NCBI GenBank assembly: GCA_963676395.1
Contig: OY781066.1
Span: 1,344,001 to 1,408,000, forward strand
Source of the DNA: a bacterium
Lineage (GTDB): Bacteria; Fidelibacterota; Fidelibacteria; Fidelibacterales; Fidelibacteraceae
Length of the DNA stretch: 64,000 nucleotides
Direction of reading: 5' to 3'
The notes below the pieces were generated by a model, which was not told the DNA's origin, searched no databases, and saw only the letters and a program-made list of their open reading frames with translations. The position numbers and the translations under genes are program-made. Positions 1,815 to 45,952 of the stretch are shown here, piece by piece (position 1 is the stretch's first letter; each line of letters starts with the position of its first letter).

Positions 1815-4172
1815 TTAAGTTCTTAAGCTCACCAGCGTTACCCCAACACCACCATGCTCGGGATCGGCAAATTTATAGGATTTTACACGCTTATCTTTGG
1901 CAAGAATATCATGAATGACTTTTTGCAAAATACCGCCACCGGTACCATGGAGGATTTCAATAGATGAAAGTCCGGAAAGTACTGCATTATCAATAAATTT
2001 ATCGCATTCTTCCATGGCGGCTTCGGCACGTTTGCCACGTAGATCTAAATGATAAGAGGAGCCGCTGTGGGAATGTGAGATCATGGTGGAAATACGCTGT
2101 TTACGCTTGCGCGCGGGTTCTAGCCAGTCGGAGTTTAACCTCAATCGCGAGCCATCCACGTCCACCCAGATCTTTCGGGTTTTTTTGTTGATCTCAAGGA
2201 TCTTTCCGTTTTGGCTCATGGTAGGAATGTAAACATCCATTCCGACTGTCAATTCGTGAAGTTTCATAGCTTGAGTCGGCGCTTCAACTGTAAGCTCTCG
2301 TTTTTCGGTTACGACTTGCTTTGCCTTGTTAAAGGTCGCTTGCGCTTCGCGAATGGCATTTTTGCCTGCCTGTTGTTCTTTAATTTGGCGGATACTGGCT
2401 TCCAGTTCCTTGCGCATATCGGCAATCATACTTTCGGCACGTTTAACCGCTTCTTTTTCGGCTTTTTTGTATTTATGGTCGATATCTTTGCGTTTATCTT
2501 CGACGTATTTGAGCTTTTGTTTGTAATCTTTTTCTTTGTCTTTAGCCTCTTTCAACTGAATGTCATAACGGGAGATCTTTCGCTGAAGGTCCACAATAAG
2601 CCTTTCCAGTTTTTCACGCTGGTGACCCACACGAGCTTTTGCGTGCTTGATCACGCGTTCGTCCAACTCAAAACGCGAAGCAATATCAATAGCATATGAC
2701 GAACCGGGAATTCCCATGATAAATTCATAGCTGGGAATAAAATCACGATCATTGAATTTCATACTACCATTCTCGAAGAGGGGGGAGTCGAAAGCCAGGG
2801 TTTTTAATGATCCATGGTGAGTGGTGGCAATGATAGTAGTGCCACGTTCACTGAGTAGTTTTAGGATACCTTCAGCAAGGGCCGCACCTTCGTCGGGGTC
2901 AGTGCCCGTACCAAGTTCATCGATTAGAACCAATGAATTTTCTGTAGCTTCGTTTACGATATTTTTCAGTGATAAAATATGAGAAGAAAATGTCGAGAGA
3001 CCACCATCAATGGATTGTCCGTCTCCGATATCCACAAAGATCTTATCATATTCGGGAAGGATGGAATTTGCATTCAAAGGTAATAAAAAGCCGGCTTGGT
3101 TCATAATAGCAAGAAGGCCGATAGTTTTTAATGTGACTGTTTTACCACCGGCATTGGGCCCCGTGACTATAATCCCGCACTTACCTTCGGGGATCTCCAT
3201 GTTCAAGGGGACCGGCTCTGTGGTAAAATTTAATTCCAGGTTTCGGCCGTTTACAATGTGCAGTCGTTCACCTTCTTCATCCGGTTTTTCCAAATTAAAT
3301 TGTAACGCGAGTTTTGCGTTGGCATGGATAAGGTCGAATTGTTCCAATACATCTATACACAGTTCAACGGATGGTAAATGTTCGCGTAGGCGAGAGCTGG
3401 CTTCTAGCAAGATCCTGCGAATTTCTTGGCGTTCTTCTTGTTTGACTTGATAAAGTTCATTGTTCATTTCAACAATGACCATGGGCTCCACATAGATGGT
3501 CTGGCCGGTTTGAGATTGGTCGTGAATAATACCGGGTGCTTTTGATCGACGCGAGGCACGAATGGGGATGACTTGTCGTCCGTTTCGAAAAGCGACCGTA
3601 TCCTCGGAGGCAATGGATTCGCTTAGCCATTCACCGGCAATTTGTGTGACCTTGCTCCGAATGCGACCATCAAGCTTAGCAAGCTGTTTTCGCAAACGAT
3701 ATAACTCCGAAGATGCTTTATCCGATATCTGCCTGTCGGAATCAAAAAGCGAAAAAATATATTTTTCAAGTTCTTCAAGATCCGGATTATAGGACTTAAT
3801 TAGTTTTTTCAGTTCGGGATATTTATTTTCCCGTTGATGAAAATAAGCGGCAACTCTGCGTGCATGGCGCATGATATTTGCCAGACCGTAGAGCTCTTCT
3901 TCTATTAGCATATTACCTTTAATACGTGCCTTGGCAGTAATCTCACTTTGTATTGGAAAACCGATCAACGGTAATGCCGTGTCTAGCGCCATCAAGTCAC
4001 GCATTTCAAGGTGTTGCTGTTGTTTTTTTAGGTATATGTGCTTTGGTTGAAATGAGCTTAGGTTCAATGCCGCATGTTCGCTCATTTCACATAGGGTATA
4101 TGAGGCCAGTTTTTCTCTGACCGTGTTGTATCCAAGTTGTTGATATATGTTGCTCAATGTGTTGTCCGTCAT
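1815..4172 (-). CDS. mutS2: Endonuclease MutS2
   Basis: Walker A TGPNAGGKT, LIDELGTGTDP, TTHH, coiled coil, C-terminal Smr domain LDLRG...IEILHGTGGG; start may be TTG a few codons downstream. Confidence 0.95.
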   Translation of the reverse strand: MTDNTLSNIYQQLGYNTVREKLASYTLCEMSEHAALNLSSFQPKHIYLKKQQQHLEMRDLMALDTALPLIGFPIQSEITAKARIKGNMLIEEELYGLANIMRHARRVAAYFHQRENKYPELKKLIKSYNPDLEELEKYIFSLFDSDRQISDKASSELYRLRKQLAKLDGRIRSKVTQIAGEWLSESIASEDTVAFRNGRQVIPIRASRRSKAPGIIHDQSQTGQTIYVEPMVIVEMNNELYQVKQEERQEIRRILLEASSRLREHLPSVELCIDVLEQFDLIHANAKLALQFNLEKPDEEGERLHIVNGRNLELNFTTEPVPLNMEIPEGKCGIIVTGPNAGGKTVTLKTIGLLAIMNQAGFLLPLNANSILPEYDKIFVDIGDGQSIDGGLSTFSSHILSLKNIVNEATENSLVLIDELGTGTDPDEGAALAEGILKLLSERGTTIIATTHHGSLKTLAFDSPLFENGSMKFNDRDFIPSYEFIMGIPGSSYAIDIASRFELDERVIKHAKARVGHQREKLERLIVDLQRKISRYDIQLKEAKDKEKDYKQKLKYVEDKRKDIDHKYKKAEKEAVKRAESMIADMRKELEASIRQIKEQQAGKNAIREAQATFNKAKQVVTEKRELTVEAPTQAMKLHELTVGMDVYIPTMSQNGKILEINKKTRKIWVDVDGSRLRLNSDWLEPARKRKQRISTMISHSHSGSSYHLDLRGKRAEAAMEECDKFIDNAVLSGLSSIEILHGTGGGILQKVIHDILAKDKRVKSYKFADPEHGGVGVTLVSLRT

Positions 4173-4211
4173 CCTGAAACGAAGGCTTCAGCCTTCGGGG
4201 TTCAGGATCTC
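4167..4211 (+). repeat. CGTC-tagged palindromic (REP-like) repeat, family A, left flank of the GIY-YIG gene
   Basis: CGTC-ATCCTGAA-A-CGAAGGCT-tc-AGCCTTCG-GGG-TTCAGGAT-CTC. Confidence 0.9.
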
Positions 4212-4220
4212 GATAAATTT

Positions 4221-4583
4221 TTAATTTTCTCTGTAATATTCGTCTAGTTTATCCATTTTACTGCAAATTTCGATATTTTCGTAATCTTCTTTGCTAAACC
4301 AATCTTTTGATATATCATTTAATCCTTCATTTTCTCTTTTTATTAATTTCCACTTCCAAGCTCGATGCCATTTTTTTAATTGTTTTTCTCGAGCTATCGC
4401 ATCTATCATCAATGGGTATTCTTCATAGTACATCAGCTCCGTTAAATTGTATTTATTACTGAATTCGCAACCATGACCTGATTTATGCTCAAACATCCTT
4501 CTTTCAATATCATTTGTAACACCTATGTATAAAACGGTTCTGTTTTTATTACTTATAATGTAAACATAACTTAATTCGTTCAT
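4221..4583 (-). CDS. Stand-alone GIY-YIG nuclease family protein
   Basis: YVYI...LYIGVTNDIERRMFEH...YYEE...AIAREKQLKKWHRAWK motifs; AT-richer than neighbours. Confidence 0.92.
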   Translation of the reverse strand: MNELSYVYIISNKNRTVLYIGVTNDIERRMFEHKSGHGCEFSNKYNLTELMYYEEYPLMIDAIAREKQLKKWHRAWKWKLIKRENEGLNDISKDWFSKEDYENIEICSKMDKLDEYYREN

Positions 4584-4597
4584 GTTTTATCTCACTA

Positions 4598-4643
4598 GAG
4601 ATCCTGAACCCCGATGTCCTTTGGACATCGTTTCAGGATGACT
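4598..4643 (-). repeat. REP-like repeat, family A, right flank of the GIY-YIG gene (inverted)
   Basis: Minus strand: AGTC-ATCCTGAA-A-CGATGTCC-aaa-GGACATCG-GGG-TTCAGGAT-CTC. Confidence 0.9.
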
Positions 4644-4711
4644 ACTCATATCTTATGGATGCAATATTTTTTAATATTATTCCTTTTATCTTTCTTCTTA
4701 TCTACTACCTA

Positions 4712-7078
4712 CTACATCAAGTTCACCGGATCTCGATTGATGAGTATTTTGACATATTTTTCTTCTTGTTTAAAGTTTTTGGCCACGTGTTGTAAAATAC
4801 TGGCTGTTTTGTTGCCGTTTGGATCTTGCTTGCGATCAGCCTTTACCAGTATTTGCCAGCGAGTGATCTCTTTAATCTTTTCAATAGCTGCGGGGGCGGG
4901 CCCCAAACAATTACATGAAGGCATATTGTTTAATAATCGCTTTTGAAGTCTAAATGATGCCGCCTGAACTTCACGTGCATTTTTTCCGCTGACCCGAAGT
5001 AAAAAGAGTCTGCTGAACGGCGGATAGGTCAACTCCCTGCGATGAAACAGCTCAAGATTATAAAATTGTCTTAACTCCAGTTTGGCTGCCATTTTAATGA
5101 CGGCTTCTTCGGGAGAAAAAGTTTGTATATATACTTCTCCGGGATACTTCGATCGGCCGGCTCTGCCACTGACCTGATAGATCAATTGAAATAATCGTTC
5201 GTTGGCACGGTGATCGGGAATTCCCATGCCGGTATCGGCATTAATAATAGCTACCATTGTGACTTTTGGGAAATCCAAACCTTTTGCGATCATTTGAGTT
5301 CCAAGCAAGATATCTTGTTTGCCCTCTTCGAATTCGTTTAAAATCCTCGCGTGTGCATGTTTTGTGCGTGTGGTATCCATATCCATTCTAGCAACTCGAG
5401 CATTTGGGAAAAGTCTCGATAGCTCTTCTTCGATCTTTTGTGTTCCATGCCCCATAGGCTCTAATGATATCGAACCGCAGTGTTTACAAGCCTTTGTCAT
5501 GGGGAAATTAGCATTACAAGAATGGCACACCAGTTTATCCAATTTTTTATGATATGTCAATGCTACCGAACAATTTGGACACTCATGGATCTCATTGCAT
5601 TCACTGCAAACTAACACGGTATTATACCCGCGACGGTTCTGCAGAATGATCGCCTGTTTTTCATCTTTTAAGGTTTTTTGTAGACCTTCTAATAGCTCCC
5701 GACTAAACAGTCCTTGTCGGGGTGCTTCCAGCATGTCGATCAAATGCACCTTAGGCAGCTTTGCTTCTCCAAAGCGCCGAGTCATTTCAAGTCTGTCATA
5801 GCGGCCAAGAGCCGAAAGGTAATAGCTCTCCAGGCTTGGGGTTGCAGAACCTAAAACGATGGGAATACCAATAATGTGAGCATACATCACAGCCGCATCG
5901 CGTGCATGGTAGCGAGGTGCGGGTTCTTCTTGTTTGTATGAGCTTTCCTGCTCTTCGTCTACAACGATCAGGCCAATATTGTTCAAGGGTGCAAGAAGAG
6001 CCGATCGTGCGCCTACAAGAACATGGATGGCTCCTTTTTGGATCTGGGTCCAGGTCCAAAGTCGCTCCGCATCACTCATTTGAGAGTGCCAGATAGCTAC
6101 TTTCTCACCGAAGGTGGAGCGGAAACGAGCGGCTATCTGCGGAGTGATGGCAATTTCGGGTACAAGTATCAGAACTTTTTTCCCCGCGGCTAATTGTTTT
6201 TTGGCTAATTCAATATAGACTTCGGTTTTACCACTGCCGGTTACACCATGGAGTAAAGCAGGGTAAAAACGGTTAAAGTTTTTTTCGATTTTAGCGATCA
6301 CTTGTTTTTGCTCATCAGAAAGTCGAACATCACGTACACGTTCTTTCACAAGATGTTCAAATGGATCGGCAGGCACTTCCATTTCACAGGCCTCAAGTAC
6401 TTCGTTTTCCAGCATTTTGTTCAGAACGGCTGCTGAAACACCCAGCTTGCGTTGTATTACGCGCTTTTCTTCTTTGGGTGTATCGAGCGAAGATAGAAGA
6501 TTGATAACATCTCGTTGCCGTTTTGTTACTTCGGCATTGGGGTTGATCAATTTAACCGCTTTGACAATTCTGGCTTTCTTGGCTTTTGGGAAAATATTGT
6601 CAATGTAAAGACGACCTGCTTTTAATCCTTCATGCAGTTCTTTTTGTCGAGCTTCTGGTAAATCTAAAAAGGCCAGCATCGAAAGACCGCCCTCGGGAAC
6701 TTCAGGCCAATTTTCGCGATCTTCATCATTCTTGATAAAACAATACTGGGTGCGCTTAAAGCCGGCTTCCGAAGGGTGAGCAGCACGGCAACACATACCG
6801 ATGGGAGCCAAATAATAATCGGCCATCCACTTGATAAGTTTGATCAGATCCTCAGAGAAAATAGGGGAGGTATCGATCACATCGGAAATGCTTTTAAGTT
6901 TATATGCGGGTTTAGCCGGAAGCACAGGGAACACATCAAGACAATATCCGATCTGTGAACGCGCCCCAAAAGAAGCATTTACGCGCATTCCCGGCTTAAG
7001 TTTTTCAACAAAATCCTCGGGTACCGTGTAGGTATATGTCTGATATACGTCCTGTGGAAAGGCTAGAGAGCAATACAT
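4712..7078 (-). CDS. priA: Primosomal protein N' (replication restart helicase)
   Basis: LHGVTGSGKT, VVDEEQE, SATPSLES, two CxxC clusters, GTQMIAKGLDFP. Confidence 0.97.
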   Translation of the reverse strand: MYCSLAFPQDVYQTYTYTVPEDFVEKLKPGMRVNASFGARSQIGYCLDVFPVLPAKPAYKLKSISDVIDTSPIFSEDLIKLIKWMADYYLAPIGMCCRAAHPSEAGFKRTQYCFIKNDEDRENWPEVPEGGLSMLAFLDLPEARQKELHEGLKAGRLYIDNIFPKAKKARIVKAVKLINPNAEVTKRQRDVINLLSSLDTPKEEKRVIQRKLGVSAAVLNKMLENEVLEACEMEVPADPFEHLVKERVRDVRLSDEQKQVIAKIEKNFNRFYPALLHGVTGSGKTEVYIELAKKQLAAGKKVLILVPEIAITPQIAARFRSTFGEKVAIWHSQMSDAERLWTWTQIQKGAIHVLVGARSALLAPLNNIGLIVVDEEQESSYKQEEPAPRYHARDAAVMYAHIIGIPIVLGSATPSLESYYLSALGRYDRLEMTRRFGEAKLPKVHLIDMLEAPRQGLFSRELLEGLQKTLKDEKQAIILQNRRGYNTVLVCSECNEIHECPNCSVALTYHKKLDKLVCHSCNANFPMTKACKHCGSISLEPMGHGTQKIEEELSRLFPNARVARMDMDTTRTKHAHARILNEFEEGKQDILLGTQMIAKGLDFPKVTMVAIINADTGMGIPDHRANERLFQLIYQVSGRAGRSKYPGEVYIQTFSPEEAVIKMAAKLELRQFYNLELFHRRELTYPPFSRLFLLRVSGKNAREVQAASFRLQKRLLNNMPSCNCLGPAPAAIEKIKEITRWQILVKADRKQDPNGNKTASILQHVAKNFKQEEKYVKILINRDPVNLM

Positions 7079-22545: not shown

Positions 22546-24358
22546 CTTTTTGCTTTAGAATATTTAGAATTTCAGTGGCAAGTTTTTGGGGTATGCCGGC
22601 TTGTTTGGCAATATTTTCTGCACTGTGTTTTTTTAATTCCTGTATGGACCCAAAGGTCGTAAGCAATTTTTTTCGGCGTGTTTCGCCGATACCCGGAATG
22701 TCATCTAAGATGCTTTTTACCATGTTTTTTCCACGTTTTTTTCTGTGGAAAGTAATGGCAAAACGATGAGCCTCATCGCGAATGCGTCTCAGTAAAATGA
22801 CTGCCGGTGATGTTTTGGGAATATTTTGTGCCTGAGAATATCCGGGAATGAATACCTCTTCGAGTCGTTTAGCCAGGCCGATTACGGGGACATTGTTTAA
22901 ACCGAGATCATTGAGTACTTCTTTGGCAATGCCCAATTGTCCTTTACCACCATCAATAAGAATAAGATCCGGAAGGACGGCGTTTTCTTTCAGAAGGCGG
23001 GTATATCGCCGGGTGACTACCTCGCGCATGGACTGAAAATCGTCGGGCTTGTCCACAGATTTTACAATAAATTTTCTGTATTGTGATCGTTTTGCCGATC
23101 CGTTTTCAAAGTAAACCATAGAAGCGACAGTTTCTTTTCCTTGAAAATGTGAAATATCAAAGCCTTCGATCCGTAAAGGTGGAACGGCAAGGTTTAAAGC
23201 TTGTTGGAGGGCCTCAACCATTTTGGTTGGTTGGATCGAGAGTTTCATCTTTTGTAGCAGGATCTCTTTTAATAGCATGTCTGCATTTTTCTTGGCTAGT
23301 GTAAAGAGTTTTGCTTTTTTACCGCGCTCAGGGCGAATGATCTTGATCGAATGACCGCAAATTTTCTTAAAGTAGTCTTCAAACAGTTCAATATCATTTT
23401 CGAGCTCTATAAATACTTCTTTAGGATAGAGACTGGTATTGGAATAATACTGTCTGATGAAATCTTTTAGAATATCCTGGCGATCCTGATGTTCTACATG
23501 TTTTAAATGAAATCGTTCTCGGCCGATCAGTGATCCTTCGCGGAGACGAAAAATGGTTACAATCGCATCGTGGTCGGCAACAGCCACAGCGATAACATCT
23601 CTGCTTTTAAAATCGGTTTGTATAACAGATTGAGAGTTCGTGTATTTTTTTAATACCTGTAGCCTGTCACGAATACGAGCCGCTTTTTCGAATTGCATGT
23701 TATCCGATGCAGATATCATATCCTTATTTAGTCGCTGAATCAAGGGTTGGGTGTTTCCGTTAAGAAAACGGACAATTTCATCAATAGTTTGTGAATAGTC
23801 TTTTGCGTTTATACCACCGATGCAGGGGGCTTGACAATTTCCAAGGTGATACTGAAGGCAGGGTTCATCATTCGGGTTACCGCCATCGCTAATGTTTTTA
23901 CGACAGGTTCGGACAGGAAAAATTTTATAAATGGCACGAAGTAAACTTTTTACATGACCTTGAGCGGTATAGGGTCCATAATATTTTGATCCATCCTGTA
24001 TAACATTTCTTGTTGAAAATACACGAGGAAAGCTTTCATTGCTGATACAGATATAGGGATAAGATTTATCATCTTTCAACATGATATTGTACCGGGGCGT
24101 ATATTGTTTAATGAGATTGTTTTCAAGAAGCAGAGCTTCAACTTCGGAATCTGTGATAATCCATTCTATATCTGCAATTTTTGAAACCAATACTTGTGTT
24201 TTAGGGTCATGAGTATTTGATCTAAAATAAGAACGTACTCGATTTTTAAGTGATTTTGCTTTACCAACATAGATAATTGTACCGCTTTGATCGTGGTAAA
24301 GGTAGACTCCGGGCTTATCCGGAACAATTTTTAACTTGTTTTCTATGACGTGCATCAC
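22526..24358 (-). CDS. uvrC: Excinuclease ABC subunit C
   Basis: PGVY..YVGKAKSLKNRV, IEGFDISH, PDLILIDGGKGQ, RDEAHRFA, HhH IPGIG. Confidence 0.97.
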   Translation of the reverse strand: MMHVIENKLKIVPDKPGVYLYHDQSGTIIYVGKAKSLKNRVRSYFRSNTHDPKTQVLVSKIADIEWIITDSEVEALLLENNLIKQYTPRYNIMLKDDKSYPYICISNESFPRVFSTRNVIQDGSKYYGPYTAQGHVKSLLRAIYKIFPVRTCRKNISDGGNPNDEPCLQYHLGNCQAPCIGGINAKDYSQTIDEIVRFLNGNTQPLIQRLNKDMISASDNMQFEKAARIRDRLQVLKKYTNSQSVIQTDFKSRDVIAVAVADHDAIVTIFRLREGSLIGRERFHLKHVEHQDRQDILKDFIRQYYSNTSLYPKEVFIELENDIELFEDYFKKICGHSIKIIRPERGKKAKLFTLAKKNADMLLKEILLQKMKLSIQPTKMVEALQQALNLAVPPLRIEGFDISHFQGKETVASMVYFENGSAKRSQYRKFIVKSVDKPDDFQSMREVVTRRYTRLLKENAVLPDLILIDGGKGQLGIAKEVLNDLGLNNVPVIGLAKRLEEVFIPGYSQAQNIPKTSPAVILLRRIRDEAHRFAITFHRKKRGKNMVKSILDDIPGIGETRRKKLLTTFGSIQELKKHSAENIAKQAGIPQKLATEILNILKQKDAHAQE

Positions 24359-41307: not shown

Positions 41308-41352
41308 GAGATCCTGAACCCCAATGTCCACAGACATCGTTTCAGGATGACG
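41308..41352 (-). repeat. REP-like repeat, family A, solo copy
   Basis: Minus strand: CGTC-ATCCTGAA-A-CGATGTC-tgtg-GACATTG-GGG-TTCAGGAT-CTC. Confidence 0.9.
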
Positions 41353-45751: not shown

Positions 45752-45801
45752 GAGATCCTGAATAAACATCAGTCAGCTGACGGATATTTTTCAGGATGAC
45801 T
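45752..45801 (-). repeat. REP-like repeat, family A variant
   Basis: Minus strand: AGTC-ATCCTGAA-AAATATCCGTCAGCTGACTGATGTTTA-TTCAGGAT-CTC. Confidence 0.85.
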
Positions 45802-45952
45802 ATGCCCCGGTGTTTTTCAACATTTCAACACTTTCAACCTTCGCCTCGGGCTACGGTTGACAGGCAACGTTTCAACTTCCGGTCTGAAGCCTAAACCTTG
45901 CTCTTAATAAATAAATCCCTTAACTTTCCTGATTAAATCAGGAAAGGATCCC

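Follow-up and report, generated by a model that had tools for sequence, protein, structure and literature searches.

A probable Ssn-family unit, a GIY-YIG nuclease gene framed by tagged hairpins, between priA and mutS2 in a Fidelibacteraceae genome

We analyzed a 64,000 nt stretch of bacterial DNA (hereafter the window; GenBank assembly GCA_963676395.1, contig OY781066.1, positions 1,344,001 to 1,408,000; family Fidelibacteraceae, phylum Fidelibacterota) in which positions 4167 to 4643 hold a small gene for a GIY-YIG nuclease enclosed by two inverted, tagged hairpin repeats. Judged by its sequence, this segment is very probably an SRM-ssn-SRM unit of the Ssn nuclease family. It is a lineage-specific insertion between the host genes priA and mutS2, and the comparison with related genomes inclines us to the view that the unit moves, or has recently moved, as a whole. 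The partnership of enzyme and hairpin is itself already published, and categorically this case is nothing new.

Gene, hairpins and family membership

The ssn-like gene (4221-4583, minus strand), identified by open reading frame (ORF) calling, Pfam and homolog alignment, encodes a single-domain GIY-YIG nuclease of 120 aa. Residues 5-77 match the Pfam family GIY-YIG (PF01541, E 2e-17). Pfam returned neither a second domain nor a separate DNA-binding domain in the protein, a T5orf172 match overlapping the same stretch as PF01541. In an alignment of 20 homologs, residues Y8, Y19, R28/R29 and E66 and the C-terminal Asn of the fold are conserved, and a C-terminal tail of about 30 aa is common to the clade of the genus. 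The nearest relatives in the PDB are the UPF0213 proteins 1zg2 (E 1e-4) and 1ywl (E 3e-3), both weak matches, and no Ssn structure is among the PDB sequence matches. The sole NCBIfam match is to the group I intron endonuclease model TIGR01453, at 21.6 bits against a cut-off of 56.

Each of the two framing hairpins spans about 45 nt and consists of a tag, an outer stem, a nested inner stem, a 3 nt bulge and an ATCTC tail. The copy downstream of the gene (4167-4211, plus strand) has the tag CGTCAT, an 8 bp outer stem of the CCTGAA type, a 7 bp inner stem and the bulge GGG. Its upstream partner (4598-4643, minus strand) has the tag AGTCAT, the same outer stem and tail, and a different, 8 bp inner stem. 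The two copies are inverted so that the tags lie outermost (CGTC from 4167 on the plus strand, AGTC from 4643 on the minus strand), and they share two pairs of inverted arms with 100% identity, one of 17 nt (4195-4211/4598-4614) and one of 15 nt (4168-4182/4628-4642). Each shared arm has three matches in the window against 0.21 and 0.09 expected, a number reached in 0 of 100 shuffles. As single-stranded DNA (ssDNA), the framing copies fold at -12.6 and -12.7 kcal/mol (z-scores -4.1 and -5.6) into the 8 bp outer stem with a 7 or 8 bp inner stem, and the complementary strands fold alike. The gaps between ORF and hairpins measure 9 nt (4212-4220) and 14 nt (4584-4597), the latter being the entire distance between the upstream hairpin and the ATG. 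The GC content of the cassette is 0.30-0.34, compared with 0.42-0.48 in the flanking genes priA and mutS2, with which the nuclease ORF is co-directional. An earlier sequence-only reading of the window had described this arrangement (a stand-alone 120-aa GIY-YIG ORF within 10-15 bp of inverted repeats of about 45 nt, outermost tags, exactly shared arms, inner hairpins that differ yet pair, and a cassette richer in AT than its neighbors), and our measurements bear it out.

In the available text of Chenal et al. (Nat Commun 2025; PMC11893778), the Ssn family comprises single-domain GIY-YIG nucleases whose genes are typically framed by hairpins. The Neisseria hairpin, NTS, reads CGTCAT, palindrome, ATCYRG and belongs to a wider class, the SRM motifs. 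An SRM lies near 71% of SsnA homolog genes and on both sides of 42% of them, the criterion for a homolog being a tblastn E < 1e-10 to Neisseria meningitidis SsnA. Purified SsnA from four species bound the hairpin only as ssDNA, on one strand only, and cut a few nucleotides upstream; family members did not cut double-stranded DNA (dsDNA), and SsnA did not bind RNA. With the N. meningitidis enzyme, cutting depends most on the 3 nt ahead of the palindrome and binding most on the C that directly follows it, and the substitutions Y6A, Y17A and E64A each abolish cutting (PMC11893778).

The window unit has the frame of an Ssn gene: inverted hairpins with outward tags, HGTCWY before the palindrome and C directly after it. 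The length of the protein falls within the ~90-120 aa of single-domain members, which likewise have no separate DNA-binding domain. Its catalytic residues, two Tyr and one Glu (Y8, Y19 and E66), stand in conserved columns and would correspond to Y6, Y17 and E64 of N. meningitidis SsnA, an equivalence drawn from motif position rather than from an alignment. Homology to genes with authentic NTS frames connects the protein to the family. Scanning species genomes for exact NTS matches led to a locus in a Sphingorhabdus metagenome-assembled genome (L117, the same as L191) where the protein matches a gene lying between two inverted exact NTS copies ~470 nt apart (E 1.8e-14 and 3.7e-14). Two more matches are to a second Sphingorhabdus copy, framed by NTS of the TGTCAT type (L189; E 9.5e-24), and to a gene of Povalibacter uvarum with NTS copies around it (E 2.2e-18). 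The exact 25 nt Neisseria NTS pattern itself occurs in at least 131 stretches, in records titled Bacteroidota, Dehalococcoidia, Planctomycetes, Latescibacterota and Nitrospirae as well as many Proteobacteria.

We aligned 23 long-form copies of the hairpin from five genomes of the genus, 20 of them chosen by length (42-43 nt, longer ones being left out) among the listed matches to the genus pattern and three from the window. All 23 agree in GTCAT, in the outer stem and in the C that follows the palindrome. The inner segments differ in sequence in all 23 copies, and all 23 fold into hairpins of 6-9 bp, each more stable than at least 196 of 200 shuffles. Conservation thus concerns the sequence of the tag, outer stem and tail, and in the inner module the structure alone; the unlike inner stems at the two hairpins of the window gene are part of this general pattern of an inner module that is free in sequence and keeps its pairing. 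Of the other genomes screened with the pattern of the genus hairpin, 20 of 21 within the genus and 0 of 19 beyond it contain matches, and the reversed control pattern has 0. Across lineages the sequence of the stem changes, and GTCAT and ATC-T/C stay. At one orthologous site in two species (L006 and L007), both hairpins have changed together through compensatory substitutions. Many contigs of one relative, G014, carry a recurrent composite in which a half-site, GTCATCCTGAAC, is followed after 11-13 nt by a full short hairpin.

Insertion site, homologs and solo hairpins

Upstream of the cassette in the direction of transcription lies priA (4712-7078, minus strand) and downstream lies mutS2 (1815-4172, minus strand), both assigned from Pfam and ORF calls. 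At this junction, 15 of 15 other genomes of the genus lack the cassette, and only 3-15 nt separate their priA stop codon from the mutS2 start. In the present genome, designated G000, the interval consists of 68 nt of AT-rich DNA, the 477 nt cassette and about 10 nt. The 68 nt spacer (4644-4711), which runs from the priA stop codon to the hairpin, has no counterpart in relatives. The alignment of filled and empty junctions identifies the unit at 4167-4643 as a lineage-specific insertion between the two genes. No cassette-less priA-mutS2 join was found among contigs assembled from sequencing runs; contigs of this kind do not reveal rare variants, and their silence does not count against excision.

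The insertion reaches into the start region of mutS2 (4155-4172, minus strand). The outer end of the hairpin (GGATGAC) supplies an ATG (4172-4170) within the tag and in frame with mutS2, which makes the reading frame five codons longer than it is from the TTG (4157-4155) that aligns with the ATG of the relatives.

Of 41 related genomes, 27 have matches to the nuclease protein, as many as 13 in a single genome, and several of the matches are interrupted by stop codons. We searched the loci of homologs with at least 45% identity (n = 22) using a finder that required the tag, 7 of 8 outer pairs and the C tail; stricter finders (a perfect stem of at least 6, or 8 of 9 pairs) miss copies with one mismatch. 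Hairpins with outward tags stood on both sides of the gene at 12 of the 22 loci and on at least one side at 16; three of the other loci are cut by contig ends. The distal parts of these loci give a background of 0.046 per 580 nt. Among 16 loci of close homologs, only 2 of 120 pairs share both flanks, which gives at least 14 contexts, and the two pairs that do (L006/L007 and L010/L030) are orthologous sites in different species. In contigs from the runs of another study, the nuclease gene is 96-97% identical to that of the window (14/383 and 11/316 differences), compared with 86% for a piece of mutS2 (48/356). Many further contigs of that study match the hairpins alone; they are metagenomic and not assignable to one organism. 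At a site orthologous to L006/L007 in another genome (G002:C23:18435-25639), the cassette is present, and ~3.9 kb of other DNA interrupts its nuclease gene.

A palindrome of the form TGTGA-N6-TCACA, which we take to be the CRP/FNR-type consensus, lies ~40-70 nt before the start codon of the nuclease gene, on the side toward the upstream hairpin and within the interval between the two, in relatives (L002-L014, L017, L018, L029 and L030) and also at L200. We claim no promoter at the window cassette, where a scan returned 4 sites against 3.1 expected.

Two further small GIY-YIG genes lie outside the window in the same genome, at C1:2330104-2330310 (L197) and C1:1767481-1767696 (L200), and are ~31-33% identical to the window gene. 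One of the two directly follows tRNA-Met and stands between two direct copies of a pseudo-tRNA 3' part with a CCGTCAGCTGACGG hairpin; the other directly follows the tmRNA gene, as is likewise the case in G001. Distant homologs in relatives (L020-L023, L025, L027 and L194) lie within duplicated tRNA-Asp, tRNA-Ser or tRNA-Ala genes. The only other GIY-YIG domain in the window (24086-24313) belongs to a 620-aa ORF that is UvrC-like in size and domain.

The genome comprises a single contig of 2.34 Mb (38% GC), in which we counted only CCTGAA-type copies as members of the hairpin family. Two of these frame the nuclease gene, one lies outside the window, and two are solo copies within it. The first solo copy, which has no adjoining nuclease gene (41308-41352, minus strand), carries the CGTCAT tag, the same outer stem and an inner stem with one mismatch; the second, a variant (45752-45801, minus strand), carries the AGTCAT tag, the same outer stem and a different, longer inner part. 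A generic search for tag plus stem found 15 sites in the genome compared with 6-12 in five random genomes, a level near that of random genomes that leaves no room for a large hidden hairpin family. The hairpin is not a high-copy repetitive extragenic palindrome (REP) in this genome. Rfam at gathering thresholds returned nothing at the hairpins and found only a tRNA in the window. Short repeats adjoin solo hairpins: a run of TTTCAAC-like units follows the 45752-45801 copy (45815-45875), and a G+C-rich palindrome (genome C1:2226875-2226905) lies near a hairpin copy at genome 2226802-2226861.

Proposed action, mobility and alternatives

Extrapolating from the four characterized homologs, the protein would bind the folded hairpin only in ssDNA and only on the strand that reads GTCAT, would use the tag and the C after the palindrome, and would cut a few nucleotides 5' of the tag. 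Such cuts would fall just outside the ends of the unit and on opposite strands, at ~4160-4166 (plus) and ~4644-4650 (minus). We consider it likely, from homology and from the motif, that the protein binds its hairpin in ssDNA and cuts 5' of the tag. If the unit is an autonomous mobile element, its ends would be compound hairpins whose tag, outer stem and tail are recognized by their sequence, and whose nested stem is recognized by structure alone. Movement could follow from nick-primed copying, or from recombination at hairpins in ssDNA, whether at replication forks or in incoming DNA.

Recent movement within the genus is suggested by the 15 of 15 empty priA-mutS2 sites, by the at least 14 contexts of close homologs, and by the higher identity of the gene than of mutS2 in the contigs of the other study. 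On these grounds the unit moving, or having recently moved, as a unit is the somewhat favored reading. That the unit's own nuclease drives the movement we hold to be somewhat less likely than not. That SRM-ssn-SRM units at large are autonomous mobile elements, whose sole protein is a GIY-YIG ssDNA nuclease of 100-120 aa, and an uncatalogued class of bacterial transposon, is a conjecture to which we give a little less than an even chance. With only five hairpin copies, the present genome seems to carry a selfish cassette acquired recently, not a genome-wide repeat system.

A series of observations weighs against this interpretation. The tags do not mark the exact limits of the inserted DNA, which extends a further 68 nt on one side. 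Neither a target-site duplication nor a decayed copy of the priA 3' end or the mutS2 5' end was found in this spacer: the alignments were no better than those of shuffles, 983, 119 and 281 of 1000 of which reached the scores. The ends of the element are not definable at a second site, that of L006, where 173-441 nt of other variable DNA occupy the empty alleles of G004, G003 and G007. G014 has the most hairpins in the genus (78 pattern matches, some of them nested), and its 87%-complete assembly contains no small GIY-YIG gene, only a 620-aa UvrC-like GIY-YIG ORF; that repeat-rich genomes should routinely lack the gene is what the sequence-only reading had said would count against it, and with this one genome the objection applies in part. 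G001 and G021 have hairpins and only distant small GIY-YIG genes, and G000 has as few as five hairpin copies. The TGTGA-N6-TCACA region is absent from the G000 cassette, whose nuclease gene may therefore depend on read-through from priA. As regards family membership, the homology runs through genes with NTS frames and not through N. meningitidis SsnA itself or CDD cd10448. Neither the protein nor its Sphingorhabdus homolog gave a match in the genomes of the N. lactamica and N. mucosa loci, an empty answer that shows nothing. Of the 4 window copies, 0 match the published degenerate SRM string, which has only 2 matching sites genome-wide. The string misses these hairpins because it accepts only G+C-rich stems and loops of 0-5 nt, and it is a search heuristic, not a definition.

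We considered whether the cassette might be a domesticated and immobile host function. The nuclease would then, as has been proposed for Neisseria, restrict incoming hairpin-bearing ssDNA (in transformation, in conjugation or from ssDNA phages) or modulate recombination near hairpins, and the repeats would be left as relics or serve as regulatory sites. In N. meningitidis, SsnA reduces transformation by NTS-gene-NTS DNA, according to the accessible text of PMC11893778; the window ORF is intact, with its catalytic residues, and two locus pairs (L006/L007 and L010/L030) keep the cassette at orthologous sites in different species. Against these points, the genome offers only five hairpins as targets, 15 of 15 relatives lack the cassette between priA and mutS2, and the close homologs are multicopy, varied in context and partly broken, a pattern that fits a selfish element better. 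We judge domestication unlikely. In the Discussion of PMC11893778, as available, the likeness of NTS-ssnA-NTS to an insertion sequence is remarked upon and domestication is raised as a hypothesis, and mobility is not shown; the literature searched yielded no published demonstration that an Ssn unit moves.

A role of the hairpins chiefly at the level of RNA, as REP-like terminators, attenuators or stabilizers between priA, the nuclease gene and mutS2, would make the link to the gene a regulatory one rather than one of enzyme and substrate. Both strands fold equally well, a terminator-like match overlaps the left hairpin on the plus strand, and Di Nocera et al. (2013), in the available portion of PMC3733652, argue that many such repeats work as RNA elements. 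That terminator-like site is on the noncoding strand, however, and is the 1 found against 0.6 expected; the invariant asymmetric tag and tail are superfluous for an RNA hairpin, and SsnA is described as not binding RNA (PMC11893778, available text). We regard this explanation as very improbable. Still less credit, in our view, goes to a free-standing GIY-YIG homing endonuclease that cuts the dsDNA of the empty priA-mutS2 site and is copied in by repair, with the hairpins as incidental terminators or RNA stabilizers. A small nuclease gene placed between two conserved genes, together with the TIGR01453 match at 21.6 bits, would fit such an enzyme, but that score is far below the 56-bit cut-off and 120 aa without a DNA-binding domain is all the protein consists of. 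Its relatives occupy at least 14 contexts rather than one homing site, tagged hairpins accompany the gene across these contexts, and the characterized members of the family are reported in the consulted text of PMC11893778 not to cut dsDNA.

An SRM-ssn-SRM unit remains the preferred interpretation of the cassette. The sequence-only reading had put the GIY-YIG protein forward as a candidate dedicated partner of CGTC-tagged hairpins in a REPtron-like geometry, a partnership that has been shown experimentally for members of the family (PMC11893778, available text). It had further suggested that the protein may recognize and nick the hairpins and so spread or maintain them. Recognition and nicking agree with the four Ssn homologs that cut ssDNA at their own hairpins (PMC11893778), whereas spreading does not stand as written, being a hypothesis only, in that paper as here. 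The enrichment of tagged palindromes in the flanks of homologs and the empty junctions in relatives, both named there as checks, were found. The statement that no dedicated mobilizer is established for CGTC-tagged REPs has been overtaken by the publication of the gene-hairpin link in 2025 (PMC11893778). Di Nocera et al. (2013), in the part of PMC3733652 at hand, state that no transposase is dedicated to these REPs; their work goes uncited in the Ssn paper, where 'Nocera' has 0 occurrences.

Significance and relation to known systems

The comparison of a filled with an empty site at a conserved gene junction bears on whether Ssn units move. A hairpin version that the published string misses implies that the system is likely to be commoner in A+T-rich lineages than estimated so far. 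The series of 23 hairpins, with a free inner stem whose pairing is kept, suggests which parts the enzyme reads and could guide the design of substrates for the ssDNA-cutting tools proposed in the available text of PMC11893778.

Free-standing GIY-YIG homing endonucleases, such as I-TevI and the Seg-type enzymes, have 200-250 aa, separate DNA-binding domains and one cognate dsDNA site. The window protein resembles them in its catalytic fold, and both are selfish genes inserted between host genes, on the reading preferred here; it differs from them in having 120 aa, one domain and many sites. Of the features expected of an insertion sequence, inverted ends are present and the gene is multicopy in relatives; no target-site duplication was found at this site, the comparisons of filled with empty sites did not fix the ends, and the enzyme belongs to no described transposase class.

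REPtrons reportedly consist of RAYT genes (HUH-Y1, IS200/IS605-like) framed by GTAG-tagged REPs, in work attributed to Nunvar in 2010, Bertels and Rainey in 2011 and Ton-Hoang in 2012. As in REPtrons, a small gene stands between inverted tagged hairpin repeats that are also found solo, and the enzyme would act on hairpins in ssDNA. Unlike in REPtrons, the fold is GIY-YIG, with no match to a Y1 transposase in Pfam, and the tags are CGTC/AGTC instead of GTAG; RAYTs are usually single-copy, whereas the present genes reach 13 matches per genome in relatives. With the CGTC-tagged REP superfamily, as set out in the available part of PMC3733652, the unit has in common short palindromic repeats with a CGTC tag at one end; no enzyme is named in that part, and the Ssn paper supplies one.

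The closest likeness is to the Ssn/NTS units (PMC11893778, as far as its available text describes them): a single-domain GIY-YIG protein of ~100 aa, inverted hairpins with outward tags, and CGTCAT before and C after the palindrome. The window unit departs from them in its AT-rich stem, with CCTGAA instead of TCCCGCG, in its compound hairpin, which has a bulge of 1-3 nt and whose nested inner stem is free in sequence, in the 30-aa C-terminal tail of its protein, and in the mere five hairpin copies of its genome.

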